Shown one piece after another: positions 1 to 47,491 of a DNA stretch of 64,000 bases (position 1 is its first letter; every line of letters starts with the position of its first letter). The stretch lies in NCBI GenBank assembly GCA_039802605.1, contig JBDRWW010000002.1, positions 224,001-288,000 of the forward strand, written 5' to 3'. The DNA comes from a candidate division WOR-3 bacterium. GTDB taxonomy: Bacteria; Hydrothermota; Hydrothermia; LBFQ01. Under the pieces are notes generated by a model. It saw only the letters and a list, made by a program, of their open reading frames with translations, made no database searches and was not told the origin of the DNA. Made by a program: the position numbers and the translations under genes.

Positions 1-284
1 AGTTTGACGATGTAGGATGCTTAATAAACTTCTTTTGGGAGAACAACATCGCGGAAAAGGATATTGCGATGTTTTTGGTGGTGGATTACAAAACCGGGGA
101 TTTAATAGATGCCACCAGGGCTTTTTACATACAAAGCGATAAAATACATTCACCCATGGCCTACGATATAGCCGCTTTCAAAAATCCCGAAGATGCCGAA
201 GAATTCTTAAATAAAAACGGTGGGAATTTAATGAACTGGGCCCAAATAAACGACTTAATCAGGAGGCAAAGTAAAGTGAGATGA
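1..284 (+). CDS. nosL: NosL copper chaperone for nitrous-oxide reductase (5' partial, begins before window)
   Basis: Frame open from position 3: FDDVGCL...FLVVDY...IDAT.AFY...IHSPMAYDIAAF, typical NosL motifs; directly upstream of nosD. Confidence 0.85.
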   Translation, partial: FDDVGCLINFFWENNIAEKDIAMFLVVDYKTGDLIDATRAFYIQSDKIHSPMAYDIAAFKNPEDAEEFLNKNGGNLMNWAQINDLIRRQSKVR

Positions 285-1495
285 TATTCCTTTTAACCTT
301 TATACGGATATGTGAGAATTGCAATTTAGAAGATGTTGTATCAAACACCAAACCCTATGATACCGTTGTGGTTAAAAAAGGTGTTTATTTTGTTAAAAAC
401 CTCGTTATTGATAAGCCTTTAACCTTAATAGGGGAAAATTGGCCGATTTTGGATGGAAGAAAGGAGGGTGAGATTCTAATAATTACGGGCGATAGCGTGA
501 TAGTTAAGGGATTTGTTTTTAAAAATACGAGGTTTGGATTCATCAAGGATTTTTCCGCTCTAAGGGTGAAAAACTGCAAGGGCTGTGTGGTTGAGGGGAA
601 TAAGTTTCTAAACAACATGTGGGCTATGTATTGGGAAAATTCGGAAGGGGGTGTTATAAGGAATAACTATATAAACGGGGGTGAGGTGAAAGGTTTAGGT
701 ACATATTCGGGAAACGGTATACACCTTTGGCACTGCAAAAAAATATTAATAGAGAACAACACCGTAACGGGACACAGAGACGGAATATATTTTGAATTCG
801 TTGATAGTTCAACCATTAGGGGCAATATAAGTTTTAAAAACGCGAGATACGGCTTGCATTTTATGTATTCAAACGGGAACGAGTTTTACGATAACGGTTT
901 CTATGAAAACGGTGCGGTTGCGGTTATGTACTCAAAGGGTTTCAAAATATTCCACAATAAATTTGAAAAACATTGGGGAGGTACGGGTTATGGGATATTT
1001 TTAAAGGATGTCTATTACGGGGAAATATTTGAAAACACATTTTACAAAAACACCGTAGGGATGCTATTTGATAACGCAAACGGCATAAAAGTCATAAACA
1101 ATGTGTTTTTAAACAACGGCTACGCGTTAAAAATTTGGGCGAGCTCCGGCAACGACACAATAATGCACAACGACTTTATAGGAAATTCCTTTGTTGTTTC
1201 GGTAAATAACAGGTTTGTGGAAGTTTTATTTGAAAAAAACTACTACGATACGTATGACGGGTATGACATAGATAGGGACGGATTTGGAGATGTGCCGCAT
1301 AGGTTGGTTAGGTTGTTTTCGGTGATAATGGATATAGTTCCGGCAACATCAATACTTTTAAAAAGCCCATTACAGCAGGTTTTGGAAAATATTGAAAAAT
1401 TTTTCCCCACTATAATCCCTTCCCTTGTGGAGGATAAAAGGCCATTTATGGAGGTTATAAACTATGGAAATAATAAAGGTAGAAAATCTAAATAA
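281..1495 (+). CDS. nosD: Nitrous-oxide reductase maturation protein NosD (right-handed beta-helix)
   Basis: GNGIHLW, GHRDGIYFEF, RYGLHFMYS and GYDIDRDGFGDVPH motifs; lies between nosL and an ABC ATPase. Confidence 0.93.
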   Translation: MIFLLTFIRICENCNLEDVVSNTKPYDTVVVKKGVYFVKNLVIDKPLTLIGENWPILDGRKEGEILIITGDSVIVKGFVFKNTRFGFIKDFSALRVKNCKGCVVEGNKFLNNMWAMYWENSEGGVIRNNYINGGEVKGLGTYSGNGIHLWHCKKILIENNTVTGHRDGIYFEFVDSSTIRGNISFKNARYGLHFMYSNGNEFYDNGFYENGAVAVMYSKGFKIFHNKFEKHWGGTGYGIFLKDVYYGEIFENTFYKNTVGMLFDNANGIKVINNVFLNNGYALKIWASSGNDTIMHNDFIGNSFVVSVNNRFVEVLFEKNYYDTYDGYDIDRDGFGDVPHRLVRLFSVIMDIVPATSILLKSPLQQVLENIEKFFPTIIPSLVEDKRPFMEVINYGNNKGRKSK

Positions 1496-2183
1496 GTTTT
1501 ACGGAAAGAAACGGGTTCTAAAAAATATAAACTTGGTTTTCCGAAGGGGTGAAATTAGTGTAATAGTGGGGCCTAACGCTTCGGGAAAAACAACCTTTAT
1601 GAAATGCCTTTTGGGTTTAGTCGTTCCTTCTTCCGGTAAAATACTTTTTTGGGGTGAGAATATCGTAGGCAAAAGCGGGTATAGGAGAAAAATCGGCTAT
1701 ATGCCACAAATACCAAACCTTCCGGAAAACTTAACGCCAAAGGACCTTTTTAACCTATTGGTTGATATATACGGTAAGGATATGGTTGAAAAACCGGAGA
1801 GATATATAGAAATGTTTTCTTTACAAGACTTTTGGAACAGTCCTATAAAAACCCTCTCGGGTGGAACGAGACAAAAGGTAAGCGCAACATTATGCCTGAG
1901 TATAAAGGCGGATGTTTATGTTCTGGACGAACCCACTGCATCCCTTGATCCAAAATCTTCCATAGTATTAAAGGAGGAAATAATTTCTAAAAAGGAAAAA
2001 GGAGCCGCGGTTATACTAACAACACATATAATCCCAACGGTTGAGGATATTTCGGATAACATAACATATATCTTCGAAGGTGAGGTTAAATATAGTGGGG
2101 ATGTCCGCAGGTTGAAGGGAATCACAGGCGAAAAAACGCTTGAAAGGGCGGTTACGAGGTTAAACGATGTTAAAAATATTTAA
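1464..2183 (+). CDS. nosF: ABC transporter ATP-binding protein NosF
   Basis: Walker A GPNASGKT, LSGG signature, Walker B VLDEPT; nos context. Confidence 0.88.
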   Translation: MEIIKVENLNKFYGKKRVLKNINLVFRRGEISVIVGPNASGKTTFMKCLLGLVVPSSGKILFWGENIVGKSGYRRKIGYMPQIPNLPENLTPKDLFNLLVDIYGKDMVEKPERYIEMFSLQDFWNSPIKTLSGGTRQKVSATLCLSIKADVYVLDEPTASLDPKSSIVLKEEIISKKEKGAAVILTTHIIPTVEDISDNITYIFEGEVKYSGDVRRLKGITGEKTLERAVTRLNDVKNI

Positions 2184-2937: not shown

Positions 2938-2938
2938 T

Positions 2939-3337
2939 TTATTGGCTTTCCCCTAACAATTGTTTAAATGTCTCAACACAACCCAATCCTTTCCTTTCAA
3001 TTTCCAACCCGAATTTGGTAAGATTTTTATCCCCTATCCCTTTACCGTCTGGATTATGACACTTGGAGCACCCGTTTTCTATAAAAACCTTACGGGCATC
3101 ACCCAAAAGGGCGTGCTTTTTGGCCAATGTTTGTAAGGAGATGCATCCATAACCCTTTTTTAACATCTCCCTTCCGTAATCCGTATAATCGGTAGGAGGT
3201 AAGGTGTGGCAGTTTTTACACCCGTAATTGTTGAAAACCTCTAAGGCATTTTTTGGAACCTCGTGAAATCCGTTATCAGATTTCGTACCCTTTAAAGAAC
3301 ACCCATAAAACAAAAGCACAAAAAATAATAGTTTCAT
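2939..3337 (-). CDS. Small diheme c-type cytochrome lipoprotein
   Basis: Lipobox-like FYGC after MKLLFFVLL; two CxxCH motifs (CKNCH, CSKCH) in an internal duplication. Confidence 0.8.
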   Translation of the reverse strand: MKLLFFVLLFYGCSLKGTKSDNGFHEVPKNALEVFNNYGCKNCHTLPPTDYTDYGREMLKKGYGCISLQTLAKKHALLGDARKVFIENGCSKCHNPDGKGIGDKNLTKFGLEIERKGLGCVETFKQLLGESQ

Positions 3338-3370: not shown

Positions 3371-5487
3371 TACCTTATCACCACGGTTCCCGTCCTTACA
3401 TTACCGCTTGGTAGTAAAACCTTTACGACAAACACACCCTTTTTATTAAATTCAATTGTGAAATCGTTTGAACCCCTCTTTACAACATATTCCCTCCCAT
3501 AAACCTTCCTTCCCGATGTCTCATAAATCAACACCTTTGCCTTACCCGGATTCAAAGAGGTTAGGTGTAGGTTTATATACCCCTTTCCACCGCTTATACC
3601 CACAAAATCCGGTATGGAAATCTCGTATATACCCGTAAAGTGACCAAAGGATAACACCAAAAATCCGGCTGACAAATCAGCCGTGAATATAATGTTCGAT
3701 GGATTCACATATACGGATTGCGATGACCAAGGGGTATCGTAATATCCGATTTCTGTAATCGTTGGAAGTAGTGACATATCAAGCACCCTTAAACCACCTA
3801 TACCATCGGCGACAAAGATGTAATTACCCCGTACAAACACATCCTTTGCCTCTCCGGGTGTAGTATAGTTTGCCACCTCAAAGGGTGCATAAGGGTTTGA
3901 AATGTTTATAACCCTTATACCGCTTAAACTCCCATCTGCTATGAAAGCATAGGGATACAAAACATATATACCCATGGCATTACCCGGGGTGTCGTAATAC
4001 GATATTTCAACAGGCGATAGGGGATCGGAAATATCCACAATTCTTAACCCCATAGTACCGTCGGCCACAAACATCAAATTCCCCTCTACAAACACCTTAT
4101 GGGCTACTCCCGGAGAATCGTAATATGATACCTCTATGGGATTTGTGGGATCGCTTATGTCTATTATTCTAACACCATAAAGCCCATCCGCCACAAAGGC
4201 GTAATTTCCGGAAACAAAAACCCCTTTCGCGCTTCCGGGGGTATCGTAATAACCCACAAGGCTTAATGATGATGTGTCATATATCATAAGACCACCTGTT
4301 GTGCCGGATGCAACGAATATGTATCCGTTATACGGGAAAACCTCAAGGGCATAGCCACCGGCTCTCTCATTTATCTTATTTATATTGGGTATTGAAATGG
4401 TAAAGGATTTCACACCTTTACTACCCGCAGCCGCAAAAATCTTACCGTTGTATTCCCTAACATCGTAAAAGCATCCCTCTGCGGAAATGAAGCCGTACAA
4501 AGTGGGATTTATGGGATCTGATATATCAAAAATTTCAAGTCCTGCTATATCTTCCGCCACCAACGCATAATTGCCTTTTATGGAAATCTTATAGGCTACG
4601 CCATAAGTGGATACCGAATTTAAAAGGGATAAGGATGAAGGATCCCTAATCTCCAATCCACCCGTCATTCCGGCGAGGTATAGATAACCGTTTTCCTTGG
4701 TATCCGTGTAGTTGTATGTGGTTGAAGCAGTTGAAACCAAAGAAGGTGTAGTTGGATCCGATATATCATAAACCTTAACACCGGATGTCCCCAATGCCAG
4801 ATGTAGGTTATTCCCCGAGACTTCCAGCGCCCTAACATTCCCTATACCCGTTATCTCGCTAACCTTTACGGGTGATGATATGTTGCTTATATCAAATATC
4901 TCAACGCCTATGGTTCCTTCACCGACTATTAGGTATCCGGAATAAACATCCACATCCGTTGCATCCCCCGTTGTAGGTATCATACCTACAAGGATGGGCG
5001 AAGACGGTGTTGAAATATCAAACACCTTTACACCAAATTCGCCATCGGCCAAGAAGAGGTAAATACCGGAAATTTTTAGAGACTTGGCGTATCCGGGTGA
5101 ATCATAATGGTAAATCAAATTGGGCGAAGTTGGTGTGGATATATCGTATATGAGCAATCCCTCCAAGCCATTGGCCACAAAAAGATAATTTCCCAAGATT
5201 TGGAGATCTAACACCACTCCATTGGTTTTGATTTCGGATATTAGTGATAGGGTTGAGAAATCATATATCCGGATTCCTCCACCCACACCCATTACCAAGG
5301 TTGATGAGGATACATCCAGGTCTGCCGTTAGGTTTGCCCCGAATGGATATTTGGCGAGAGATACGATATTTGAGGAATCGAGATTGATTCTGTAAGAGGA
5401 ACCGCAGCAGTCCTTACGGGCACCAAAGGGGCTTAAAACCCCTATGTCCCCACATGCCTCTATAACACCCATTATACCCATTATCAT
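3370..5487 (-). CDS. LVIVD-repeat beta-propeller protein with T9SS-like C-terminal sorting domain
   Basis: Many YDTPGxAxxVxVxGNYAFVADGxxGLRIIDISDP repeats; C-terminus ...IYETSGRKV...KGVFVVKV. Confidence 0.9.
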   Translation of the reverse strand: MIMGIMGVIEACGDIGVLSPFGARKDCCGSSYRINLDSSNIVSLAKYPFGANLTADLDVSSSTLVMGVGGGIRIYDFSTLSLISEIKTNGVVLDLQILGNYLFVANGLEGLLIYDISTPTSPNLIYHYDSPGYAKSLKISGIYLFLADGEFGVKVFDISTPSSPILVGMIPTTGDATDVDVYSGYLIVGEGTIGVEIFDISNISSPVKVSEITGIGNVRALEVSGNNLHLALGTSGVKVYDISDPTTPSLVSTASTTYNYTDTKENGYLYLAGMTGGLEIRDPSSLSLLNSVSTYGVAYKISIKGNYALVAEDIAGLEIFDISDPINPTLYGFISAEGCFYDVREYNGKIFAAAGSKGVKSFTISIPNINKINERAGGYALEVFPYNGYIFVASGTTGGLMIYDTSSLSLVGYYDTPGSAKGVFVSGNYAFVADGLYGVRIIDISDPTNPIEVSYYDSPGVAHKVFVEGNLMFVADGTMGLRIVDISDPLSPVEISYYDTPGNAMGIYVLYPYAFIADGSLSGIRVINISNPYAPFEVANYTTPGEAKDVFVRGNYIFVADGIGGLRVLDMSLLPTITEIGYYDTPWSSQSVYVNPSNIIFTADLSAGFLVLSFGHFTGIYEISIPDFVGISGGKGYINLHLTSLNPGKAKVLIYETSGRKVYGREYVVKRGSNDFTIEFNKKGVFVVKVLLPSGNVRTGTVVIR

Positions 5488-5491: not shown

Positions 5492-6694
5492 TTACCTCCT
5501 TTTCACAAACCTTATAACCCTTTTTTCACCTCCCCTTTCCAAAAATACTATATAAACCCCCTTGGGGAGGTTTGATAGGTTAATGTTTCCGAAAGACTCA
5601 CCTTTTAGCATTTCCCTACCCGTGGAACTGTACACTTTAAACGAGAATTTACCCCTCCAATCTATCACCCCCCTCTCCTCAACTACAATAGGGTCATCGT
5701 ATGAAAGCGGACCACAATATGTCGCAAACACAACCGTCCTATAAGGGGGCATATGATCCGCCGAAGAGGTTGTACCAGAAGCCGTATGATTGTGCCCATG
5801 CGGTAAATGGCTTGATACGGCGCCACCAGTCCAAACATCGGGACCGTAATATGTTGATGTGGTAAAACTGTATGTATGTGTATGCGTAGATGAACCTCCG
5901 TTTAAGCCCGTTGTGGTATTGGCCATCGGAATCCTACCGTCAAAGTTCGGGTCTATGGAAAAATAAGGACACGAGGGTAATGTATCAAACATAAATATAA
6001 CCACACACGATTCCACCCTCGCAGGCTCGGAAATTGCCTTCCAAAACCTCACAGTCCTATAAGGGGGTATATGGTTTGCCGAGGAAGTTGTACCCGAAAA
6101 AGTATGGGAATGGGGTTGGCTATAAGGGGTGTCGTATGTAGATCCATAATCCGCTATATCGGAAGAGGAAGAAGTATTAGTAGATGTTGTTCCAGAAAAT
6201 GTATGAGTGTGAGATGTGGTTCCACCGGTCAAACCGGGTGTGGTAGTGTTTCCCATAGGAAACCTATCAACCATAGATGATGTTATATCACTCCATTCGG
6301 GTCGCGTGGGAGCGTTATACGATAAAACCACGGCATTTTGTGGTAAATATGTAAAGTCAACTAGGGCTTTTGCAAATATAAAGGTTCTGTAAGGGGGTAT
6401 ATGATTTGCGGAACTCGTAGTTGTTGAATATGTGTGAGTATGGGGATCCATAGGGGTAATAGACCAGGAAGTTCCCCCACAGTTGGGAATAGTGGTACCC
6501 GAGGATGTTGTGCCGCTTATCGTGTGGGTATGGCTTGTGGTTCCACCAAGGGTACCACCGTATGTTGTCGTTCCAAGGGGAAATCTGTCTTGAAAATCCG
6601 TTAATACTTGCCAACCCGCAGGGGGTGGCCCATCAAACATTACAATTGTTCCCGCGGGAACAGGAGCACATTGCGATATGACAACCACCATCAT
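5492..6694 (-). CDS. Secreted protein with three phage tail-collar/fibre-tip-like repeats and a T9SS-like CTD
   Basis: Three ~100-aa repeats with DRFPxG...GGxxSHTHT...HxH...NHIPPYRT; CTD VYSSTGR...NLPKGVYIV; ATG at 6694 chosen from promoter position. Confidence 0.75.
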   Translation of the reverse strand: MMVVVISQCAPVPAGTIVMFDGPPPAGWQVLTDFQDRFPLGTTTYGGTLGGTTSHTHTISGTTSSGTTIPNCGGTSWSITPMDPHTHTYSTTTSSANHIPPYRTFIFAKALVDFTYLPQNAVVLSYNAPTRPEWSDITSSMVDRFPMGNTTTPGLTGGTTSHTHTFSGTTSTNTSSSSDIADYGSTYDTPYSQPHSHTFSGTTSSANHIPPYRTVRFWKAISEPARVESCVVIFMFDTLPSCPYFSIDPNFDGRIPMANTTTGLNGGSSTHTHTYSFTTSTYYGPDVWTGGAVSSHLPHGHNHTASGTTSSADHMPPYRTVVFATYCGPLSYDDPIVVEERGVIDWRGKFSFKVYSSTGREMLKGESFGNINLSNLPKGVYIVFLERGGEKRVIRFVKRR

Positions 6695-6829: not shown

Positions 6830-7372
6830 ATGCGTAGGGTTTTATACTTTACACCTTTTTTAATTCTCCTTTCATGCGCTTCGGTGGAGGATAAGGTTCG
6901 TTCATCATCCGTAGATTACACCATATCACCGATGATGACATTTGATACAATAAAAACCATAGCGGTATTCGCAAAAGAGCAGGTATTATACGACGAAGCG
7001 GTTCTAAACCTTTTGAAGACCGGAAAATTTGATGTAATTGACAGGCAGAAAATTGACGAGATTTTGGAAGAGCAGGAGTTTTCCCATTCGGGATTTGTGG
7101 ATCAGGAAACCGCGGTTAAGGTTGGAAAACTCCTCGGCGCAAACCTCATAGCATTCGTTGAGAAGGTATCCTCCGGTAAAGATTTTGACGCTTATACATC
7201 AAAGGTTAGTGTAAAAATTATAGATGTTCAAACGGGCAGGATTATGTATGTGGCTACGGCATACGGGCAATCTTACGAGGATGGAGATGACGCTTTAAAA
7301 GAGGGTTGTAAAAATGCCTTTTATCCCCTGGTTAAAAAATTCGCAACCAATGGGGAAGGTGATAACCGTTAG
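6830..7372 (+). CDS. CsgG/HfaB-family lipoprotein
   Basis: MRRVLYFTPFLILLSC lipobox; FDVIDRQKIDEILEEQ...AVKVGKLLGA...IIDVQTGRI. Confidence 0.8.
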   Translation: MRRVLYFTPFLILLSCASVEDKVRSSSVDYTISPMMTFDTIKTIAVFAKEQVLYDEAVLNLLKTGKFDVIDRQKIDEILEEQEFSHSGFVDQETAVKVGKLLGANLIAFVEKVSSGKDFDAYTSKVSVKIIDVQTGRIMYVATAYGQSYEDGDDALKEGCKNAFYPLVKKFATNGEGDNR

Positions 7373-10335: not shown

Positions 10336-10687
10336 AGGGAAACTTAACCCTATCCCCTATTTTTATTCCTCTTTTTTTAAACCAACCCCTATTAACCTCT
10401 AACGCGTACTGAACCCTGTTCTTTGAAATTATAGGCTTTTCGTTTAGGGGCTCCATATCGTATATTTCCAATATCTTCCAATCGCTAGAAATGTACGCTA
10501 TGGAAAGGGGTATATATGTGTTTTTCATCCAAAAGGATAACCTTTGTGGATAGGGGAAGATGAAAAGCATACCTTGATTTTCCGGCAGTGTATCCCTATA
10601 CATCAACCCCCTTTGCAATTCATAAGGTTCATCCGCTATTTCAACATATAGGGTTTCGGCGTTTATACACAAAGCCACTAAATTCAT
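10328..10687 (-). CDS. DUF192-family protein
   Basis: VEIAD...RGLMYR..LP...GMLFIF...FWMKNTYIPLSIA...ALEVNRG. Confidence 0.9.
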   Translation of the reverse strand: MNLVALCINAETLYVEIADEPYELQRGLMYRDTLPENQGMLFIFPYPQRLSFWMKNTYIPLSIAYISSDWKILEIYDMEPLNEKPIISKNRVQYALEVNRGWFKKRGIKIGDRVKFPCE

Positions 10688-11211
10688 TCAACAAACTCCA
10701 CCCTTATCACACCCCTGAAATTGTCAACCGAATAACCTCGGGCCCTATCCTTAGGGTATCTTTTGAGTATTTCCTCCAAAACATTTTTGGGTATGTTTTT
10801 CCCTTCAATGCCATGACAATTTAGGCATAATGGCCTTACGAATAGGGGTTTGTAAAACCTATAAACCGTTTTCCCATCCCTCTTAAAGGTTTGTATGTAA
10901 TACTCGGGTTTTTCCCCTTTTTTCACCTTATTCTCAAAATATTTTAGGGCTTTCGCTTCGTATTTATCGGGTTTGTTTTTGGGGTTTCTATAATTAAAAC
11001 TTGTGCGTTTTATAGAAACATTATAAGCCTTGGATAAGCTGTCCGTTATGGGTAATGCCCTTTCGGAACAATATGATACGGCATTAACCAAGCCTTTTTC
11101 CTTTATGGCGCCTTCAAGTTCGTTTAAAAGGGCCTGCATAAATACCTTTACAATTTCTTCGCCCTTTTCCTTAACAAAACCTTCTTCGATACCAAACAAC
11201 AGGAGCAACAT
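10684..11211 (-). CDS. DUF3365 / Tll0287-like c-type heme protein
   Basis: AVSYC, RTSFNYRNPKNKPD, FYKPL, CLNCHG, YPKDRARGY. Confidence 0.85.
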   Translation of the reverse strand: MLLLLFGIEEGFVKEKGEEIVKVFMQALLNELEGAIKEKGLVNAVSYCSERALPITDSLSKAYNVSIKRTSFNYRNPKNKPDKYEAKALKYFENKVKKGEKPEYYIQTFKRDGKTVYRFYKPLFVRPLCLNCHGIEGKNIPKNVLEEILKRYPKDRARGYSVDNFRGVIRVEFVE

Positions 11212-11234
11212 AGCGAAAATATTCTAAGGCCGTT

Positions 11235-16554: not shown

Positions 16555-18147
16555 ATGCTTGAAATTTTACTTGCGGCCAGTAATCAGTATTTAAAAATAT
16601 ATGTTTTGCACTGGAACGATGCCCACGGACATATGGGATATAACGAGGCCTTTTGGCTTGACCCGGATTTCCCACCCTTGTTATCAAACGCCCGAGCCTT
16701 GGCCTATATGGTTAAAAAATACCGTGAAAAGGCTAAGAAAGAGGGTTCTTTGCTTTTGGTATTTGATGCGGCGGATTATTTTCAAGGGGATCCCTTAGGC
16801 GAATTGACTAAGGGCAAACTTTATATTGATATTATGAACTATATAGGATTGACGGCGGGAGCCGTTGGAAATCACGATTTTGATTTTGGCAGGGATATAT
16901 TGGATTCCCTTGCAAAATGGGCAAATTTTCCGCTATTATGCGCCAACCTAACGGATACACTCGGAAACCCACCTTCACTTGCAAAACCGTACATAATTAT
17001 TGACACCATGGGTATAAGAATAGCGGTTTTTGGGTTGATAACCCACTGGCTAAAAGGCATGGTTCCACCCCAAAATATGCCAGACCTTGATGTAAAGTGG
17101 GAATATTCATTCGTTAAGGAATTCGTTCCAAAATTGAGGAAGGAGTACAATCCGGATATAGTAATAGCATTAACGCATACGGGTTTTAGGCATGACCAGA
17201 GGAACGCCGACAGCATTAGGGGAATAGACCTAATAATAGGGGGGCATAGCCATACGGGTCTTTATAAGCCGTACTTTTCTCGGATAAATTCAACGGCCAT
17301 AGTTCAAGCGTTCTCACATATGGCAAACCTCGGAGTTGTAGAAATCCTTTACGATAGGAAAAACAAAACCATAGTTGATATAAAGGGTAAGATAATAACA
17401 TTAAATGCGGAAAGGGTTCCATCAGACCCCTATGTTGATTCCGTATTAACCGTTTACGAGAAAAAGGTGGATAGTATTTACGGGGAAGTGGTGGCTATAA
17501 GCGATGGGGATTTTAACAGGGGTGGGTTTGTTGAAAGTTCTATGGGAAATATTATAACGGATGCTATGAGGTGGTATGTTGAAGAAAGACTCGGAGAAAA
17601 AGACTTCCCCGTTGTTGCCATTTATAACGCCGGAGGTATAAGGGCAAACTTCCGTTATGGAAAGATTACAAAAAGGGATGTTTATAACGCCCTACCCTTC
17701 CCAAATGTCTTAATGTATGGAAAGGTAAAGGGGGAGGACTTATTAAAAATTTTAGGGGTTGGTTTTAACGGCCACCATGCAATATTCAACGTTTCGGGTT
17801 TAAAGTTGGAGTACAACAACGATAAACTTTATTTGGATAGTATAACCGCCGTTATTAGGGATAGCATAACCCTAGACAGCATGGGCGTCAAGACCTATAA
17901 CTTACCCTTAGCAGAAGTAAAAATACTTGAAGTTGGAGGAAGACCTTTTCACCCCGATTCCACATATATATTGGTTTCTAACGATTACCTTATAAACGGA
18001 GGAGGGGAATATGTGGTGTTTAAGACTTTATGGGATATAAAGGATACGGGAAGGAGGATATCGGATATAGTTGAGGAATATTTACGGTTTAAGGGTAGAA
18101 TTAAACCCCAAATAGAGGGGAGGATAAGGAAGATTAAGGGGATATGA
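16555..18147 (+). CDS. Bifunctional metallophosphatase / 5'-nucleotidase
   Basis: LHWNDAHG, DAADYFQG, GNHDFD, GGHSH, NAGGIR, LPFPN. Confidence 0.92.
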   Translation: MLEILLAASNQYLKIYVLHWNDAHGHMGYNEAFWLDPDFPPLLSNARALAYMVKKYREKAKKEGSLLLVFDAADYFQGDPLGELTKGKLYIDIMNYIGLTAGAVGNHDFDFGRDILDSLAKWANFPLLCANLTDTLGNPPSLAKPYIIIDTMGIRIAVFGLITHWLKGMVPPQNMPDLDVKWEYSFVKEFVPKLRKEYNPDIVIALTHTGFRHDQRNADSIRGIDLIIGGHSHTGLYKPYFSRINSTAIVQAFSHMANLGVVEILYDRKNKTIVDIKGKIITLNAERVPSDPYVDSVLTVYEKKVDSIYGEVVAISDGDFNRGGFVESSMGNIITDAMRWYVEERLGEKDFPVVAIYNAGGIRANFRYGKITKRDVYNALPFPNVLMYGKVKGEDLLKILGVGFNGHHAIFNVSGLKLEYNNDKLYLDSITAVIRDSITLDSMGVKTYNLPLAEVKILEVGGRPFHPDSTYILVSNDYLINGGGEYVVFKTLWDIKDTGRRISDIVEEYLRFKGRIKPQIEGRIRKIKGI

Positions 18148-18821
18148 GGAAACGGGTTGTTATTCTCCTTGGCATTTTATCGTGCTCGGAGTACGGTATA
18201 TTTAAAGATTGGGAAAAGAGGGCACAAAAAGAACCCATATCGGTACTAAGGGAAATCGGAGATAGTTTGAGATCCCCAAAGTTTAAGAGAAAAATGGCTA
18301 CAACACCCCTTGGCCCCAAGGTTTTGGACCTGGCTATAAAAATTTCAAAGGATCTGGATTATTATAAACTTCCCATAGATTCACTTGTTAAATGCTCAGA
18401 CGGGTTAAAAAGTGTCGTACTATTCGTTTATGATTTTGGGATTTTTGACGAGAGGTGGAGCGATGTTTTATTCGCTTATAGGGAAATTCTAAGGGCTGCC
18501 TTGTATAAAATGGAAAACATAGACGATTTGGATTCCTTGGAAAGGATAACATACGCCTTACAACCCCCTTTAATGGCGGGTATATACAAAAAGGAATATG
18601 AAAAACTTATAGATCTGTATAGGAGTAAATCCGTAGCAAACGGGGAAATAAGGTGGGGCATGGGGGAGGGTGATGTTATTGAAGCTTGGGGAGAACCGGA
18701 TTCGGTTGATACGGTTTATTCAATATCAAACGCATCCTTTGGGAAGATATTGTATTGGAAGGATAGGGGTAAAGGCGTGTTAATATTGGATGGAAGGGTT
18801 GAGGATGTTTTTGAGCAATAG
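18144..18821 (+). CDS. Hypothetical lipoprotein
   Basis: MRKRVVILLGILSC lipobox; C-terminal IRWGM...V..AWGEP (SmpA/BamE-like pattern); ATGA-coupled. Confidence 0.65.
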   Translation: MRKRVVILLGILSCSEYGIFKDWEKRAQKEPISVLREIGDSLRSPKFKRKMATTPLGPKVLDLAIKISKDLDYYKLPIDSLVKCSDGLKSVVLFVYDFGIFDERWSDVLFAYREILRAALYKMENIDDLDSLERITYALQPPLMAGIYKKEYEKLIDLYRSKSVANGEIRWGMGEGDVIEAWGEPDSVDTVYSISNASFGKILYWKDRGKGVLILDGRVEDVFEQ

Positions 18822-20724: not shown

Positions 20725-21471
20725 TTACCTTATACCCAAATTCCCCTTTGTGATTTTAAACCTTTCGTTCCTTCTCCTCCCCGATATGTCGTACATAACC
20801 CCTTTTGTTTTCCTTAAACGCTTTGCCGATTCCGAAACTCCTATTAAAATTATTTCCTTGCCAGTACCCACTGGGTATGAAATCGTATAACTTGAAGAAC
20901 CGTAATAAACCGTTTGGTATGTGCTATCCCAAATCTCCTTTGTTATTCCAAAAAATGGTTTGTAATAAAATCTGCGGACTTCAACGAACATTATGGAATC
21001 CGGGGAGAAGGCTGAGGTAAAGATTATTAAGTATTTCGGCCTTAAAGAAACCCTAACATTTCCCGTTATAGTTGATACGGTATCGTTTAGAGATTCAACA
21101 CCGGCCAAAGAAGGACTATATATAATGGTGTCCGCCATACCGTCCATATCCGTATCTATAAAGGGGATTTTCGTATTTAAGGGTAAAAGGCAGTCGTTCC
21201 AAGCCTCCCAAGTATCGCCAACGGAAGGGTTGTACCTGGCAAACCTGTAAAAGGGGTTATGGAAGTGATTGTTCCCATACCAAATAAATGTTGAGTCCAA
21301 AAGCGTGTCCCTCTTAATATAAATCTTTGCAATCTTGCCGTATATATCCGTACACGAGCCGTACAATGGTAAATTATATGTTGCCGCAACGCTATCCCTT
21401 TCGTTGTTTCCCCAAGGTATTACCCTATAATCCCAAAAATTGCCTACGCTTAAACCCAAGTAGGATAACAT
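20725..21471 (-). CDS. Hypothetical exported protein with a degenerate T9SS-like CTD
   Basis: L.VGNFWDY start; DTDMDGMAD Ca-binding-like motif; C-terminal GVSE...YDISGRR. Confidence 0.6.
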   Translation of the reverse strand: MLSYLGLSVGNFWDYRVIPWGNNERDSVAATYNLPLYGSCTDIYGKIAKIYIKRDTLLDSTFIWYGNNHFHNPFYRFARYNPSVGDTWEAWNDCLLPLNTKIPFIDTDMDGMADTIIYSPSLAGVESLNDTVSTITGNVRVSLRPKYLIIFTSAFSPDSIMFVEVRRFYYKPFFGITKEIWDSTYQTVYYGSSSYTISYPVGTGKEIILIGVSESAKRLRKTKGVMYDISGRRRNERFKITKGNLGIR

Positions 21472-32849: not shown

Positions 32850-33965
32850 CTATTTTATCCTAACTATACCCCCGATATAGGTTTGAAAACCGTATCTCGT
32901 ATTATACACCACAGCGGGTAAGTATCCGCCTAAAGAGGAAAATATTGGAACACCCAATCCTATGGAAATGCCCATAGTGGTATCAACACCCCCAAAATCC
33001 GTAAATACCGAAATACCAAACCCGCCGCTTACAAACCTTCCGATTATATCCGGAAACTCTTTTGCCAAAACCTTCCTCATCTCAAAAGAAACCAAGTACC
33101 TTGTTTTTCCCACCACCCTACGCTTGGGTATTCCCCCCCTTAAAGCGTCATCCGTACCCATGAAGTTGGGTAAAAGGTATAAGGGTGGATATCCGAAAAG
33201 GTGGGTATATCCTCCGAAAATCACAAATGTTAAATCGTTCAAAGATTTAAAACCCTCATAGTAAAACTCAAACTTCCTCGCAACAAAATTTCCAAAATAC
33301 TCATAAATCCCGCTTTTTAAGGTATAACCCCTTTGGGGATATAAAATCCAATCACGGGTATCTTTAAAAACGATTACGGAATTTTCGGAAAAAATATCCT
33401 CTATACCAAAGCTATCACTCTTAACCGAAACCCCCCTTATTTTCAACTGCATACGAAGATTTTCGGATAATTTCGTGTTATATACACCCTCTACCCATGT
33501 CTTGTGAATGGGTATTTGGTATATAAGACTATAATACCCAGAGGAACCTATGCCAAAGCCTACTGAGTTTTTAAAAAAACGGTAATTCGGAGTGTTCCAC
33601 ATTATTTCCCAACTCCTCCGGGCCCCCATCATAAAGTATCCCGATAGGTTTTCACCATTGCCCCGAAAGTTTGTATGAATAACACCCAAGCCCAAGCTCA
33701 AACCCACATCAAAACTGTAATCTATTACCGGATAAGGCCATATATACCAAAACTCTTTGAGGAAAATATAGACGGTATCGTTTATAAGATCTACCTTTAC
33801 ATCCCTAAAAAGTTGGGTTTCCTCTATTCTCTTTTTTATCAAATCAAGGGGAACATCATTAACGCATTTACATGTATCGGCACCTATGACCCTTAACACA
33901 AAAGATTCCTTGGTGCGGACATTTCCCAAAACTTCAACATAATACGCGAAAATAACGGTTATCAT
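32850..33965 (-). CDS. Omp85 (BamA/TamA-like) outer-membrane protein with a single POTRA domain
   Basis: VEVLGNVRTKESFVLR POTRA; NFRGNGE; DTRDWILYPQRG; ALRG; FTDFG. Confidence 0.75.
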   Translation of the reverse strand: MITVIFAYYVEVLGNVRTKESFVLRVIGADTCKCVNDVPLDLIKKRIEETQLFRDVKVDLINDTVYIFLKEFWYIWPYPVIDYSFDVGLSLGLGVIHTNFRGNGENLSGYFMMGARRSWEIMWNTPNYRFFKNSVGFGIGSSGYYSLIYQIPIHKTWVEGVYNTKLSENLRMQLKIRGVSVKSDSFGIEDIFSENSVIVFKDTRDWILYPQRGYTLKSGIYEYFGNFVARKFEFYYEGFKSLNDLTFVIFGGYTHLFGYPPLYLLPNFMGTDDALRGGIPKRRVVGKTRYLVSFEMRKVLAKEFPDIIGRFVSGGFGISVFTDFGGVDTTMGISIGLGVPIFSSLGGYLPAVVYNTRYGFQTYIGGIVRIK

Positions 33966-35615: not shown

Positions 35616-35616
35616 C

Positions 35617-36870
35617 TTACCTCCCCTTTTCCTTATCCAAAAACTCCCTTATACCTTCCGCGATCGCCTTTGCTATCCTTTTTTGATAGTCTTTACTTGC
35701 CAATTTTTCCACCTCCTTTTTATTGGTTATAAAGCCAATTTCTATTAAAACCGATGGCATACCTACCCATTTTAAAACATAAAAACCCGCCTGTTTTAAC
35801 CCCCTATCCTTTGACAGCTTATACTCAATGGCTTTTCCGTGTATATATCCGGCGAGTTTATAGGATTGTTCCAAAAGTAGGGTTTGTATTAAATCCCCGA
35901 CAATTATTCCCACCTCATCCGTAGGGTTCAGATTACCCAAATCGTATTTAACAGCCGAGTTTTCGAGCAAAGCCACCGCCCTTTCCTCGGATGTTCTGCT
36001 CTCGGATAAGAAATATGTTTCCAATCCATCCGCCCCATTGTCTATACTGGCATTACAATGGATACTTACAAATAAATCCGCACCGCTTCTATTTGCAATC
36101 CTCGCCCTTTTTGATAGGGGTACATATTCATCCCCTTCACGGGTTAGTATAACCTTATACCCATAACCTTTTAGGATATTTGCCAGTTCCAAAGCGACGG
36201 CCAAGTTTATATCCTTTTCCTTATAACCGTTGGCCACGGCTCCGGCATCCTTTCCCCCATGTCCCGGGTCTATAACGATTACGGGCAATCCCCCTGTTTT
36301 CAAAGTTTTTATGGGATATATGGTAATGGTGATACCGTCATCCCCTTTATACACGGAAGATTTACCCGCCCCAAATCCCAAATGTATTATAAATTTCGTG
36401 TTTGTCTTCGTATGCAATATATCAACTACGCTTACAAACTTTCCATCACCGAGTACCTTTCTGTATTTCCCGTAAAGCCCATTAACATTCACAACTATGC
36501 TATCTTCATATAAATTAACATCAAAATCCTTGCCCCCTTTTATGGTAATACGGTAAGTGGTATCAACTGCCCCCATAAGGAGATTCTTTATTGTGGGTTC
36601 TGCGATAAAAAGCCTTTCACCCTCTACATCCCAAAAAACATTTAACCCCATATTGAAAAGCACGGGGGCCAATTCATCACCCTTAAATCTGATCACATTT
36701 GAAGTATCAATACTTAGGGGGAAAACCTTTTTGCCTATAAACGCCAATCCGCTATCCGTTATAATGGCAGAAGAACCTTTATAAACTATTCTGTTTTTTT
36801 CAACCCTTACGCCAAACCCCTTTAACTCCTCAATGCCAACCCAAACATCCGTCAAAACCATCAAAATCAT
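35617..36870 (-). CDS. N-acetylmuramoyl-L-alanine amidase (Amidase_3)
   Basis: IDPGHGGKDAGA, EKDINL, FVSIHCNA, MPSVLIEIGF. Confidence 0.92.
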   Translation of the reverse strand: MILMVLTDVWVGIEELKGFGVRVEKNRIVYKGSSAIITDSGLAFIGKKVFPLSIDTSNVIRFKGDELAPVLFNMGLNVFWDVEGERLFIAEPTIKNLLMGAVDTTYRITIKGGKDFDVNLYEDSIVVNVNGLYGKYRKVLGDGKFVSVVDILHTKTNTKFIIHLGFGAGKSSVYKGDDGITITIYPIKTLKTGGLPVIVIDPGHGGKDAGAVANGYKEKDINLAVALELANILKGYGYKVILTREGDEYVPLSKRARIANRSGADLFVSIHCNASIDNGADGLETYFLSESRTSEERAVALLENSAVKYDLGNLNPTDEVGIIVGDLIQTLLLEQSYKLAGYIHGKAIEYKLSKDRGLKQAGFYVLKWVGMPSVLIEIGFITNKKEVEKLASKDYQKRIAKAIAEGIREFLDKEKGR

Positions 36871-42582: not shown

Positions 42583-42585
42583 ACT

Positions 42586-43908
42586 TCACCTCCTTATAAC
42601 CTTATAAACCCTATTCCCGCGCTTAACCATATAAACCCCCTTTGGAAGATTGCTAATATCTTTACCAACCAGCCTACCCTCAACATTATAAACCTCGGCT
42701 TCTTCTCCTTTTACACTAAGATTTTCCGAAACCTTTAAATATGGTATTGGGGCGTAGGCAAACCATATATGCCAGTAGTTCCTACCTCCGGAGACTATCC
42801 TATTATCCGACCAAACCACATAAACATTGTTGCCATCCGCCCAAGCGTCTATGTAGTGCCCCGGCCAACAGTCGTTTGTGTAATCAACACCGCTAACGCC
42901 ACCGCATCCGCTCCTATCGACAAATGGAAAATATGTATCCGAAACCCTTATTGGAGAAGACCAAGAGTTGCCGCCATCGGTTGAGTATGAGTAGTACAAG
43001 CCCCATAAACCGGTTCCCGCACTGTTATCGTACCAAAATGCGTGCAAACCTCCATAAGGATCTGCCGCCAGAGCGGGCATATATTCCGCAACGGAAGGGG
43101 GATTTGATGTTATCCTTACGGGGGATGACCAGGTTGCGCCTCCGTTTGTTGATTTAACGAACTCAACCTTCAAGTTGCTCAAAGAACCCGCCATATAGAT
43201 TATACCTATGTTTCCCTTACCCCACCCAACGGGTTGATAACCAGCGGGATAGGGGTTTGGGGCTATATCGGGGGTCATACACGCGGCATTTGTTGGGGAA
43301 GACCATGTGGCACCGTTTGTGCTCCTTGAAACATAGAGGTATATGCAAGAACCGCTTGATCTCCACCAAACGGCATAAAACAGGGAGTCGTCGGATGCCG
43401 CCATGGGAACACCCCCGGTTGAATAAACCGCAGCCCTGCTCCAAGTGGCACCGTTATTATAAGAGTAAGCGGAATAAATCGTAGAAGATGTGCAATAGTT
43501 GGAGTAAATTATAACCGCTGTATCGTTCCTTACGGCTATCCAGGGGTGATCCGTTGATGAGCAGTTTCCGGCATTTATGGCGGAGCTCCAAGTTAGGCCT
43601 CCATCCGTGGAACGCATATAATATGTGTAATAATTACCCAACCAAACGAGATGAACGGTATTACCCCAAATCCTAACAACGGGGTCGCAACAGGCCGGTC
43701 CGGGATCGCCGAAGTGTGCCCCCCATGTTAGTCCTCCATCGTGCGTTATGGAGAAGGCGTTTTCTCCCGTTATATCCATATCTATCCACCCCGAACCGCC
43801 GAGGCTATACATAACCGCACCCGAAACCTCGGCATGGCTTGTGTTATCGGGGTAATCATCCACGCGCACATTGACAAAAGGGTAATCGTTTAAAATTATT
43901 AAGAACAT
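42586..43908 (-). CDS. BNR/Asp-box (sialidase-like) beta-propeller with T9SS-like CTD
   Basis: Repeated SxDGGxTW; VVWSDNR; CTD VYNVEGR...LPKGVYMVK...KVIRR; ATG 43908 lies 7 nt after TATAAT. Confidence 0.85.
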   Translation of the reverse strand: MFLIILNDYPFVNVRVDDYPDNTSHAEVSGAVMYSLGGSGWIDMDITGENAFSITHDGGLTWGAHFGDPGPACCDPVVRIWGNTVHLVWLGNYYTYYMRSTDGGLTWSSAINAGNCSSTDHPWIAVRNDTAVIIYSNYCTSSTIYSAYSYNNGATWSRAAVYSTGGVPMAASDDSLFYAVWWRSSGSCIYLYVSRSTNGATWSSPTNAACMTPDIAPNPYPAGYQPVGWGKGNIGIIYMAGSLSNLKVEFVKSTNGGATWSSPVRITSNPPSVAEYMPALAADPYGGLHAFWYDNSAGTGLWGLYYSYSTDGGNSWSSPIRVSDTYFPFVDRSGCGGVSGVDYTNDCWPGHYIDAWADGNNVYVVWSDNRIVSGGRNYWHIWFAYAPIPYLKVSENLSVKGEEAEVYNVEGRLVGKDISNLPKGVYMVKRGNRVYKVIRR

Positions 43909-43961: not shown

Positions 43962-45068
43962 TTGAAACGATGGGCGTTTTTGATAATTTTTCTTGGATGT
44001 TCTGCAAATTTTAACACCTTGGAGGGGCCCGAAAACCAAAGGGATATAAGGGTGGAATTTAAAGACATTGTGGTGAAAAAGGGCGATGTTTTTGGAGAAA
44101 TTGTCAATAATTTGGATTTCCTACCACAAAAGGGCGAAATTGTAAAGTGGTTCTCCGATAGCGTAAGGATTTTAAACATATACGACACGATAAGGTTTGT
44201 TTTCATAAACGACACCCTAAGCAGGTTGGAAATAAGGAAGTTAAAGGGAATATACGAGTATGACTTTTCTACGGGCAGCGGGCGGTTTATAAAAAGGTTT
44301 AAGGAATACATTCCAAAAACCGTCCAATTGGTTATAAATACGAGTTTGTGGGATGCTTTCCTAAACGAAAACCTACCCCTGGAATTGTTTGTTGAGATTA
44401 CCGATATATTCGCTTGGGATATTGACTTCTCATCCGAAACCCAAAGCGGTGATACTTTGAGGATGGTTTATTCGGATGCGGGAATAGTGTATTATGCCGA
44501 GTATATAGGGAAAACAACGGGTAGAAGGGTGGCCGTTAGGTTTAGGGGGGAGTATTACGACGATAAGGGCAACAATATACGCAGGATGTTCTTAAAATCA
44601 CCATTAAAATCCTATGTTATAACATCCGGTTTTGGCATAAGATTTCACCCCATTTTGAGGGAATACAGGCCCCATCATGGCGTTGATTACGCCGCACCTT
44701 ATGGTTCTCCGGTTCATACCGTGGCAAGCGGTAGGGTTGTGTTTGCCGGTTGGAAGGGCGGGTATGGTAAGACGGTTATAATAAAACATACAAATGGATA
44801 TCAAACCCTTTACGGCCACCTGTCAAGGATATATGTCAAAACCGGGCAAGTCGTGGAGCAAGGGGATGTAATAGGTGCCGTGGGTTCAACTGGGCTATCA
44901 ACAGGCCCACATCTACATTTTGAAATAAGACAACACGGGAAACTCATGAACCCCCTACGGATAAAATCCGAGCCTTTAAAACCCCTTCCGGAAGAATTAA
45001 AACCCGAGTTCTTTGCCCTATTGAGGGAATACCAAGATATGATAAATGGCTACATCGTATCAAGATAA
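43962..45068 (+). CDS. M23-family peptidoglycan DD-metalloendopeptidase lipoprotein
   Basis: Lipobox FLGC; HHGVDYAAP, YGHL, STGPHLHFE. Confidence 0.92.
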   Translation: MKRWAFLIIFLGCSANFNTLEGPENQRDIRVEFKDIVVKKGDVFGEIVNNLDFLPQKGEIVKWFSDSVRILNIYDTIRFVFINDTLSRLEIRKLKGIYEYDFSTGSGRFIKRFKEYIPKTVQLVINTSLWDAFLNENLPLELFVEITDIFAWDIDFSSETQSGDTLRMVYSDAGIVYYAEYIGKTTGRRVAVRFRGEYYDDKGNNIRRMFLKSPLKSYVITSGFGIRFHPILREYRPHHGVDYAAPYGSPVHTVASGRVVFAGWKGGYGKTVIIKHTNGYQTLYGHLSRIYVKTGQVVEQGDVIGAVGSTGLSTGPHLHFEIRQHGKLMNPLRIKSEPLKPLPEELKPEFFALLREYQDMINGYIVSR

Positions 45069-45636: not shown

Positions 45637-45664
45637 TCTCTTCCGGCTTTAAAATATCCAAACT

Positions 45665-47491
45665 ATGGTGGGGATAATTTTGTCCGCGGTTCAAAGTTTG
45701 AGCTTTAAAGCGGTTGGGGATATTTCCCCAAAGAGTATATACGGTCCAGACCCCTACGGGTACATAGCCATCACATCCGATGACACATCCTCAATGCGCC
45801 CCACATGGAATTGGGTTGATAAATCCTCCGATCCCTCAACGGTATATCTAACAATGTCCGATGACGACATACAGGGGCCTTTCCCGATAGGATTTACTTT
45901 CCCCTATTACTGGTATTCGGTTTCCCAGTTTTACATACACTCAAACGGTGCAATAGGTTTTCGTTCCGGTCCTTTCTGGACGCCTCACGACAATTTTATA
46001 CCCAATGCCGCATTACCCAACGATATAGTAGTAGGCCTTGGCGCGGACTTAAACCCCTCTTGTGGGGGAAGAATATACTACTGGACAAACGGCACGGACT
46101 CCCTAGTCGTTACATTTGATAGCGTTCCCACATGGTGGAGCGGTACGGATTGCAACGGTGCCCACACATTCCAGATAATCCTTACGGCGGATGGAAATAT
46201 CACATTTAACTACGGACCGCAAATAGGCGGATACGATTACGGTATAGGTCAGGTCGGAATATCCATAGGAATTGAATCCGTTTTGGGTAATCCGGGATTG
46301 AGCGTTCATGAGGATGGAACCCCTACAACTTCGCAACCGAGGGATTCCTTTGCAATAAAGATTTACAGGCCGGATTCGACGACTTTCAGGATTGCGGATG
46401 CTTCGGCTCACTCCATATTCGGGAACGAAACTAACCATGTGTTAAACGCCGGAATATTCATAGCGTATAACAGGGAAACCGCCTTTATTCCGGAAATAAA
46501 AGTTGAAAATGTGGGAACGGACACTCTTTACAATACTTGGGCAAAGCTTGTAATACGCAGGAGATTTTCGGGATCCATCTCATACAGGGATTCCGTATTG
46601 ATACCCACAATTTCACCGGGTTCCGTTGTATCTCAAACCCTAACACCTATAAACTTCTCCACATTTGCAAGGGACTTTTATACTGCAATTCTAACCGTTT
46701 CCAACTCCTCGGATGCTAATACCACAAACAACACGCAAAGGGTTGAAATCAGGCTATACCATTGGACAAATCCCGATACACTTTATTGGTTTAACTGGAA
46801 CAATTTGGCAACTGGTAATCTCGTTTTCACGAGGTGGCTTGGAGCCGGTGGTGGATGGGCACAAAGATTTGATCCAAGGCATTACCCCTTCCAAATTGAC
46901 TCCGCCTGGTTGGTGGTTGCCGGATGTTTATCCGCAGATCCCGCATGTACGGGTCCAATAAACACACCGATGTTTATAGCATCCGATACCAACGGGACCG
47001 TTGGAACATGGTTATACGCCGATACATTACCCGTTTCAAGGGATTCTGCAAAGATATACACCTTAATACCGCCCACCCCATTGGTTGTTAATAGGCCCTT
47101 CTTCGTGGGTTACATTCAGCCCGATAGCCTTGGCCCTTCTGTTGGTATGGATACATCAAAACCCGTTTCAAGGCAAACCTTTGAATCAACCGACGGTGTA
47201 AGTTGGGCACCTTATAGGGATATGGAAACCTCGGATTTTGCATTTGTTGTATGGGGTAAATCCCTAGAATCCACATCTATAAGCGAAGGGAAATCCACAA
47301 AACCCACAGATATACACATATCCAAGGATGGTGTAATAACCCTCTCCGGTAAGACCCATGTTAAGGTTTATAGCGTATCCGGGAGGGTTGTGTTTGAAGG
47401 CGAAACCGAAAAGGTCTCATTAAAGGGTTATCCGCGGGGTTTGTATTTTGTAAAGGTCGGAAATAGGCTTATAAGGTTTGTTAAAAAATAA
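45665..47491 (+). CDS. Secreted protein (nidogen-like + CARDB-like regions) with T9SS-like CTD
   Basis: GPDPYGY, IGFTFPYY...SNGAI.F, TFQIIL...G.I.FNY; CTD VYSVSGR...PRGLYFVK...RFVKK. Confidence 0.8.
   Translation: MVGIILSAVQSLSFKAVGDISPKSIYGPDPYGYIAITSDDTSSMRPTWNWVDKSSDPSTVYLTMSDDDIQGPFPIGFTFPYYWYSVSQFYIHSNGAIGFRSGPFWTPHDNFIPNAALPNDIVVGLGADLNPSCGGRIYYWTNGTDSLVVTFDSVPTWWSGTDCNGAHTFQIILTADGNITFNYGPQIGGYDYGIGQVGISIGIESVLGNPGLSVHEDGTPTTSQPRDSFAIKIYRPDSTTFRIADASAHSIFGNETNHVLNAGIFIAYNRETAFIPEIKVENVGTDTLYNTWAKLVIRRRFSGSISYRDSVLIPTISPGSVVSQTLTPINFSTFARDFYTAILTVSNSSDANTTNNTQRVEIRLYHWTNPDTLYWFNWNNLATGNLVFTRWLGAGGGWAQRFDPRHYPFQIDSAWLVVAGCLSADPACTGPINTPMFIASDTNGTVGTWLYADTLPVSRDSAKIYTLIPPTPLVVNRPFFVGYIQPDSLGPSVGMDTSKPVSRQTFESTDGVSWAPYRDMETSDFAFVVWGKSLESTSISEGKSTKPTDIHISKDGVITLSGKTHVKVYSVSGRVVFEGETEKVSLKGYPRGLYFVKVGNRLIRFVKK

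Follow-up and report, generated by a model that had tools for sequence, protein, structure and literature searches.

We analysed a 64-kb window (positions 224,001 to 288,000 of contig JBDRWW010000002.1) of the genome of a hot-spring candidate division WOR-3 bacterium (1.65 Mb, about 90% complete; hereafter G000, a member of family f1), in which the genes are densely packed. A first-pass annotation of this DNA had noticed that proteins of families that work outside the cytoplasm start here with Met and a handful of hydrophobic residues, lack a basic n-region and go straight into the mature domain; we call these N-termini stubs. A classical signal peptide of the general secretory (Sec) pathway has about 20 residues arranged in n-, h- and c-regions and is cleaved by LepB, the type I signal peptidase (SPase I), and the accepted minimum is a basic n-region with an h-region of 7-15 residues. 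We confirm the observation; beyond the window it holds for the genome, its family and its order and, as a gradient, for the phylum.

Hydrophobic stubs on 13 proteins of the window

Translation reproduced all 13 N-termini quoted in the annotation, each from an ATG at its reported place, and none of them contains Lys or Arg (K/R). At six of these starts (281, 10687, 22481, 28392, 33965 and 36870) the ATG overlaps the stop codon of the upstream open reading frame (ORF) in an ATGA, as had been reported. The six genes encode a NosD protein (gene 281-1495, plus strand; stub MIFLLTF at 281..301; Pfam NosD and Beta_helix), in which the in-frame TAA at 272-274, two codons before the ATG, is indeed present; a DUF192 protein (gene 10328-10687, minus strand; MNLVAL at 10670..10687; Pfam DUF192); a SCO1/SenC protein (gene 21741-22481, minus strand; MIIFIA at 22464..22481; Pfam SCO1-SenC); SurA (gene 27163-28392, minus strand; MILMLLS, followed by Q, at 28372..28392), with a stop one codon upstream; a small outer-membrane protein of the Omp85/POTRA type (gene 32850-33965, minus strand; MITVIFA at 33945..33965); and an N-acetylmuramoyl-L-alanine amidase (gene 35617-36870, minus strand; MILMVLT at 36850..36870; Pfam Amidase_3). 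Two further genes have an in-frame stop four codons upstream and a promoter-like box before the ATG, namely, a Tll0287-like (DUF3365) protein (gene 10684-11211, minus strand; MLLLLFG at 11191..11211; PF11845; box TAGAAT) and a 5'-nucleotidase (gene 16555-18147, plus strand; MLEILLA at 16555..16575; box TATAAT), the latter with Pfam 5_nucleotid_C and Metallophos matches from residue 17. The family names given in the annotation are supported by Pfam for NosD, SurA, the amidase, SCO, DUF3365, the 5'-nucleotidase and DUF192, the SCO1/SenC match being narrow (23.3 bits against a cut-off of 22.8). The Omp85-like protein has no Pfam hit; its name was recovered instead from a match to the Omp85/POTRA clusters of the protein Atlas (feature score 0.98; structural template-modelling (TM) score 0.83-0.88), aligned from residues 1-6. 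The SCO1/SenC protein combines its N-terminal stub with a C-terminal hydrophobic helix (LVKLVGVLSILMILAVYGYIFLI), an inversion of the arrangement usual in this family, where the anchor is N-terminal.

The remaining five proteins had been listed as sharing a C-terminal domain (CTD), a description that holds in part when they are compared with PF18962, the model by which we recognised type IX cargo. One of them (gene 45665-47491, plus strand; MVGIILS at 45665..45685; stop four codons upstream; box TAAAAT before the ATG) is over the cut-off with 27.2 bits. Weak matches were obtained for a type IX cargo-like protein (gene 5492-6694, minus strand; MMVVVIS, followed by Q, at 6674..6694; E 1.2e-4, 20.2 bits) and for a type IX cargo-like protein with BNR repeats (gene 42586-43908, minus strand; MFLIILN at 43888..43908; Pfam BNR_2; PF18962 E 0.0027). 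PF18962 was not detected in an LVIVD-repeat protein (gene 3370-5487, minus strand; MIMGIMG at 5467..5487; stop five codons upstream; Pfam LVIVD repeats) or in a protein of no known family and with no Pfam match (gene 20725-21471, minus strand; MLSYLG at 21454..21471), which is the weakest of the 13 examples.

The five lipoprotein signals quoted in the annotation, each with K/R, an h-region and Cys, are likewise present in the window. They are MKLLFFVLLFYGC (3299..3337, minus strand; gene 2939-3337), MRRVLYFTPFLILLSC (6830..6877, plus strand; gene 6830-7372), MRKRVVILLGILSC (18144..18185, plus strand; gene 18144-18821), (M)KRWAFLIIFLGC from a TTG start (43962..44000, plus strand; gene 43962-45068) and MKRFLVLVFFITC (47523..47561, plus strand; gene 47523-48347).

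Genome-wide extent of stubs and classical signals

Genes were called with a simple hexamer-scored ORF caller made for this work, which yielded 1679 genes with complete 5' ends in G000. We counted as a stub any N-terminus with a hydrophobic segment that starts in residues 1-3, has no K/R before it and ends by residue 12, in a protein with no later membrane helix. By this filter 160 of the 1679 genes encode stubs, versus 11 of 373 in G036, a genome of the same phylum and another class that has ordinary signals (Fisher p = 6e-6). The 11 proteins that pass in G036 are mostly plain cytoplasmic enzymes, and subtracting this baseline leaves roughly 110 stubs in G000. Positions 2-7 of the stubs are mostly I, L, V, F, M or W, and the proteins that bear them include SurA, the Omp85/POTRA barrel, the amidase, NosD, the 5'-nucleotidase, SCO and type IX cargo. 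For the last of these, PF18962 gave 19 matches in G000 (E up to 0.01), which we sorted by reading their open frames into 14 proteins with short K/R-less hydrophobic N-termini, two with classical signals and three with unclear starts.

Normal SPase I-type (SPI) signals have not gone from this genome, as the annotation would have had it: about 15 clear signals of the form MKR...A↓Q persist (here and below, the arrow marks the expected cut site). Its division between lipoproteins, which keep their basic residues, and SPI cargo does hold genome-wide, with 53 lipobox signals carrying a K/R n-region versus one without. The lipoprotein signals are also shortish, since the lipobox Cys stands at a median of residue 16 in G000 and 14 in G017, versus 19-20 in two genomes of other classes. 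Outside the window, G000 encodes a pair of paralogues with an acidic EEEE-V-TG-AE[FY] stretch after the leader, one of which begins with the stub MLLWVFIFQ... and the other with the classical MKRYLILLAFFGLPVLGYAQ..., so that both kinds of signal would seem to serve one protein family in one cell.

Start sites, promoter boxes and transcripts

Ten of the 13 stub genes of the window have an in-frame stop 0-5 codons ahead of the ATG, and the open upstream frame encodes a signal-like sequence in none of the 13; a TTG at 6733, upstream of gene 5492-6694, would add 13 residues that are not signal-like. The start of gene 42586-43908 is ambiguous, since in-frame TTGs precede its ATG at 43908, one of which would yield M-FLSLIIPNMFLIILN, a 16-residue leader without K/R. 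Genome-wide, 137 of the 160 stub genes have no in-frame ATG, GTG or TTG upstream, and in 70 the upstream open stretch is at most four codons long.

Promoter-like boxes give a second handle on the starts. Of the 1064 genes without a hydrophobic start, 201 have a TAnAWT (-10-like) box whose first base lies 14 or 15 bases ahead of the ATG, versus about 5 per neighbouring position, a pattern which suggests that mRNAs with leaders of 0-3 bases are widespread and which helps to pin starts. Among stub genes, 51% have the box 11-18 bases ahead of their ATG, versus 32-41% in other gene classes, and at this distance it leaves no room for upstream coding. Examples in the window are at 16532-16554, 45642-45664 and 11212-11234 (minus strand); a Shine-Dalgarno sequence is often absent.

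These data bear directly on the idea that the stubs are artefacts, either of misplaced starts (non-canonical or reached by read-through) or of cytoplasmic proteins with hydrophobic starts by chance. There is something to be said for it, as 23 of the 160 stub genes, gene 42586-43908 among them, do have an in-frame GTG or TTG upstream, and about 3% of the proteins of the control genome pass the filter by chance. However, the close upstream stops in the window and in the genome, the position of the box, the absence of signal-like sequence from the upstream frames, and the stop one codon before the surA ATG, which is kept in 11 of the 12 f1 genomes, all speak against it, and outer-membrane proteins and type IX cargo cannot function in the cytoplasm. 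We therefore regard this explanation as very improbable; the sequence context nearly excludes mis-called starts. Read-through or an alternative genetic code that would give longer N-termini was considered and rejected, since the upstream frames hold both TAA and TGA stops and no signal-like sequence.

Among the RNA data, one run available as contigs and one of three raw-read sets contained the organism. Metatranscriptome contigs cover the LVIVD-repeat gene (3370-5487) at window positions 3179-5336, and a second run adds 25 raw reads. The organism is therefore present in independent RNA libraries, as is, probably, the LVIVD transcript.

Conservation of stubs and exchange with classical signals

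SurA orthologues were found in all 31 relatives examined. In each of the 12 f1 genomes, SurA opens with 7-8 hydrophobic residues of drifting sequence (MILMLLS, MFLSFVM, MFFLLIS, MMLLLLS, MIILLAA, MLLMLVA, MLLILTV and MFVLFLTA), which always stand before QLDT, and the SurA of family f2 is likewise of the stub type (MIFLLLQVDS...). In family f5 it begins with MTWFLALLSQ plus extra residues, and in the other families it carries longer signals or classical signals of the MRKGILLLLLFGLIFAQQ type, ending ...A↓Q. The two kinds replace one another at the same site, as in MILMLLS↓Q versus MRKGILLLLLFGLIFA↓Q. Amidase orthologues have leaders of seven residues in f1 and f2 and of 13-15 residues, again without K/R, in f4, and their sequence drifts as that of SurA does, so that selection would appear to act on the hydrophobicity of the stub and not on its sequence. 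The Tll0287-like orthologue in G010 carries the classical MRRMVALTLVPVLIGG, where G000 has MLLLLFG. Reciprocal best hits between G000 and four relatives, each sampled over 400 kb, gave 12-19 stub pairs per genome, with a further swap in MMWILLA↓Q versus MRRLLILLLFTPLYA↓Q. We used these pairs as examples; leader offsets across them were dropped as a statistic, since the pairs were few and the median shifts small.

We also surveyed samples of 300-400 kb of six other genomes. Leaders that lack K/R and end at residue 12 or earlier were found on 38 of 306 proteins in G010 (f1), 47 of 393 in G017 (f2) and 38 of 380 in G027 (f5), and on 16 of 387 in G159 and, as above, 11 of 373 in G036. For G020 (f4) the count was 15 of 368, plus 14 leaders ending at residues 13-16. 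Leader lengths thus form a series, with 7-9 residues in f1 and f2, 10-12 in f5, 12-16 in f4, and 9-18 K/R-less residues in other classes, and these graded lengths argue for the stepwise shortening of one kind of signal. Judged by these sequences, the stubs are the short end of a phylum-wide gradient and not, as had been proposed, a peculiarity of this lineage. The annotation's notion of a minimal export signal fares better, since the cargo must cross the inner membrane, the hydrophobicity is kept, and stubs alternate with classical signals at the same site.

Residues at the end of the stubs

The first polar residue after the stub is most commonly Gln (26 of 110, versus 53 of 1064 proteins without a hydrophobic start). 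The motif [ASG]Q occurs at residues 5-13 in 25 of the 160 stub proteins, versus 25 of 854 other soluble proteins, which is an enrichment of about sixfold (p = 6e-9). The classical SPI signals of G000 also end in ...AQ, and this common, Q-rule-like ending suggests that the same peptidase serves stubs and classical signals. Most stubs lack a clear site, so that their cleavage is something we infer.

It might accordingly be asked whether the stub is an export signal that is left uncut: after opening SecYEG it would remain attached to the mature protein, either as a tail that does no harm or as a weak handle for a membrane or chaperone. The 135 stubs without [ASG]Q fit this idea, as do the many that have L, I, F or M just before the first polar residue; a seven-residue leader would presumably be unable to span the bilayer for the usual presentation to LepB; and the Atlas fold of the Omp85-like protein, aligned from residues 1-6, appears to leave little space for a separate leader. 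Set against this are the enrichment of [ASG]Q, the coincidence of the stub end with the expected cut site of the classical signals of orthologues, and the conservation of LepB, which is over the cut-off in 29 of the 31 relatives and, examined for presence in G000, is encoded there by a single gene. In addition, Dev et al. are said to have reported in 1990 that a short peptide from -7 to +2 suffices as a substrate of LepB in vitro. On balance we hold retention of the stub to be unlikely.

The preference for Gln after both stubs (in the window at 28369-28371 and 6671-6673, both minus strand) and SPI signals is a Q-rule-like pattern outside Bacteroidota. In the Bacteroidetes, as described in PMC5837995 and PMC10653852, Gln stands at +1 of SPase I substrates and is converted to pyroglutamate. 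The likeness lies in Gln being the commonest residue after leaders here and in the relatives (...FAQ, ...YAQ, ...LLSQ), whereas the phylum is a different one. The beta-propeller glutaminyl cyclase PF05096 was not found in the roughly 90% of the genome that G000 represents; a cyclase of the M28 type was not searched for.

Apparent absence of the signal recognition particle from the class

Models of the signal recognition particle (SRP) gave negative results in G000 and its class. The ffh model had no match in G000 and none over the cut-off in the 31 relatives. PF00448, the GTPase domain of Ffh and FtsY, was not found over the cut-off in G000 or in any of 64 genomes of the class (1.2-2.4 Mb; 44 of the 64 at least 90% complete), whereas the same search was positive in 14 of 14 control genomes, and most genomes of other classes, 99 of the 151 in the phylum sample, gave two strong matches each. 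Weak PF00448 matches in G000 and in family f3 were rejected as SRP GTPases, since they are a RadA-like ATPase and an AAA_22 protein. The SRP M domain (SRP_SPB) and the small SRP RNA were not found in G000; of two SRP-bearing genomes, the RNA model picked up its target in one, and three other genomes of the class gave no hit. Finally, tblastn searches with E. coli Ffh and FtsY and with the FtsY of SRP-bearing members of the phylum gave no match, and controls of the same type with SecY and with the neighbours of those FtsY genes matched at 1e-63 to 1e-110. Outside the class, families f12, f24, f25 and f27 also lack an Ffh/FtsY GTPase, and the other classes mostly have both proteins. The SRP is, to our knowledge, usually treated as universal; from these sequences we think that the pathway has been lost in the whole class. 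With no detectable SRP in the class, co-translational targeting would have to work differently there.

SRP loss could itself be thought to have caused the collapse of the signals, long or basic ones being no longer needed. The class-wide absence of SRP GTPases agrees with this, and so do the 9-14% of K/R-less leaders in five sampled SRP-less genomes of the class, versus 3.2% and 6.7% in two genomes with SRP. However, tested with SurA across the other classes, the idea was not supported: in 9 of 10 genomes of the SRP-less families f24, f25 and f27, SurA keeps a K/R signal 16-22 residues long, and in 7 of 9 SRP-bearing genomes of other classes its leader lacks K/R and has 9-18 residues. Short K/R-less leaders occur in the SRP-bearing lineages G040, G045, G089, G039 and G159. 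As far as the sequences tell, SRP loss and stubs are not coupled, and we consider a causal role for the loss extremely improbable.

Another possibility is a second targeting route, in which some factor, or SecA bound to the ribosome, reads Met and the hydrophobic residues on the emerging chain. In its favour are the sharp split within one genome between lipobox signals, all but one with K/R, and SPI-type cargo, most of which has stubs; the SRP results above for the class and for G000; and the presence of trigger factor, SecA and YidC. It is countered by the free swapping of stubs and classical signals between orthologues and paralogues, by the short K/R-less leaders of SRP-bearing lineages and by the K/R SurA signals of the SRP-less families outside the class; no candidate factor came to light either, though no search was aimed at one. 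We rate such a route as quite unlikely.

Sec machinery and the pore ring of SecY

The first-pass annotation took the stubs to imply altered recognition by SecA, SecY or the signal peptidase, or an undescribed export route. SecA, YidC, LepB, trigger factor, LspA and Fmt are all present in G000, as is the def gene, which is cut by a contig end, and SecY is found in 31 of 31 relatives, so that nothing demands a route outside Sec. SecB was not found, a result from which nothing was concluded. What stands of the proposed alteration of SecY is a correlative hint, the change of a pore-ring Ile to Ala or Ser.

The secY gene of G000 lies outside the window (G000:C2:107386-108600). SecY was aligned to that of E. 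coli, and the six residues that we take to form the pore ring (I187 and I82 among them) were compared. Five of the six positions are Ile throughout the class. At the position aligned to I187, f1 and f3 have Ala, f2 has Ala in one part and Ser in the remainder, and G040, with a SurA leader of nine residues, has Val; the residue is Ile in f4-f9, G036, G061, G045 and G089, which are lineages with longer or classical signals. Position 82 is Val in G045 and G089, both outside the class. A prl phenotype is known to result from small residues in the pore ring, and the pattern seen here hints at a loosened, prl-like SecY channel that would tolerate weak signals. The E. coli pore ring is described as six Ile (PMC8082313), and the prlA (secY) suppressor alleles of E. 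coli as allowing the export of proteins whose signal sequences are defective (PMC11470409). The likeness to these alleles consists in the Ala or Ser at the I187-aligned position of the families with the shortest stubs, and in the Val of G040; the difference is that the change here is natural and fixed, known from sequence alone, and not a laboratory suppressor. G011 encodes a second, divergent SecY on a short contig (L113, G011:C77), which fits its estimated contamination of 7%.

Interpretation of the stubs

We consider it likely, with a probability of roughly 60%, that the stubs are genuine, functional, minimal signal peptides of the Sec type, and we predict that they direct export and are cleaved. 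Such a stub would consist of the initiator Met and five to eight hydrophobic residues, without a basic n-region, usually with a small last residue and often with Gln next. Its hydrophobic N-terminus would engage SecA and SecYEG, the latter at its lateral gate, in the manner of an ordinary h-region, the free or formylated amino end acting as the sole 'n-region'. The chain would then cross the membrane, and the single LepB would probably cut after the stub, leaving the same mature N-terminus, often Gln, as arises from the classical signals of sister lineages. Lipoproteins keep K/R and a longer h-region, probably because the precursor on which Lgt and LspA act has to remain anchored in the membrane.

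Compared with classical Sec/SPase I signals, the stubs are likewise N-terminal and hydrophobic, stand on the same cargo families, often have a small last residue, and are replaced by classical signals in orthologues (SurA, the amidase, the Tll0287-like protein and further reciprocal-best-hit pairs). They differ in lacking a charged n-region (by the definition of a stub, the 160 genes have no K/R before the core), in a leader of 7-9 versus about 20 residues, with a core at or below the usual lower limit of length, and in that a small residue before Gln is recognisable in only 25 of 160 cases. Other known signals fit less well. SPase II signals are set apart by the lipobox, which occurs in one K/R-less leader of G000 versus 53 leaders with K/R. 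The stubs contain no Arg, as twin-arginine translocation (Tat) signals would, and the order of a type IV prepilin, in which a short basic leader with Gly at its end precedes a hydrophobic helix of the mature protein, is reversed in them, the hydrophobic stub coming first and the polar mature domain after it. An SRP-dependent signal anchor, which Ffh, 4.5S RNA and FtsY recognise, would need the SRP54-type GTPase that none of the 64 genomes of the class was found to encode.

Several points weigh against reading the stubs as cleaved Sec signals. In E. coli model studies, a core of 5-7 residues that lacks a basic residue falls short of what works well, and the 135 stubs without [ASG]Q show no clear -3/-1 site. 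The genome-wide counts depend on a simple in-house gene caller, and by the 2.9% baseline of G036 about 50 of the 160 stubs may be cytoplasmic false positives, of which MCGIFGIV... is an example. The RNA reads (18 contigs, and 25 reads on 20 kb) are too sparse to place any 5' end. K/R is kept on 53 of 54 lipobox signals and on the 15 or so SPI signals, so that classical signals are evidently still read and two routes may exist. Lastly, the SecY correlation involves few lineages, in which the residue may have changed independently just two or three times.

A wider scenario, which we put forward tentatively and think possible rather than probable, is that the phylum shrank its Sec signal stepwise to a seven-residue, charge-free code in two families, one that would still export essential envelope proteins such as SurA and barrels of the Omp85 type, enabled by a prl-like SecY, in a class that has no SRP and in which SecA or some other factor would do the targeting. 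No paper on short signals or on the loss of SRP was found for this phylum, and none in the library searched connects WOR-3 with the SRP. Term look-ups in the main texts of four WOR-3/Caldipriscus papers gave no mention of signal peptides (PMC12285271, PMC11696919, PMC12542636 and PMC4791363), and SRP terms are absent as well from the texts of PMC12542636 and PMC4791363.

If seven uncharged residues suffice for SecYEG, then the accepted minimum for a signal peptide would be a property of particular translocons and not a physical limit, and the natural gradient of leader lengths, together with the pore-ring variants of SecY, provides a set of sequences with which to test how far the minimum depends on the translocon. 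The apparent absence of SRP from genomes of free-living size, which poses the problem of membrane-protein targeting without this pathway, may matter as much as the stubs. Signal-peptide predictors and secretome surveys will probably label stub proteins as cytoplasmic, and the envelope and secreted proteome of the phylum would therefore be understated.

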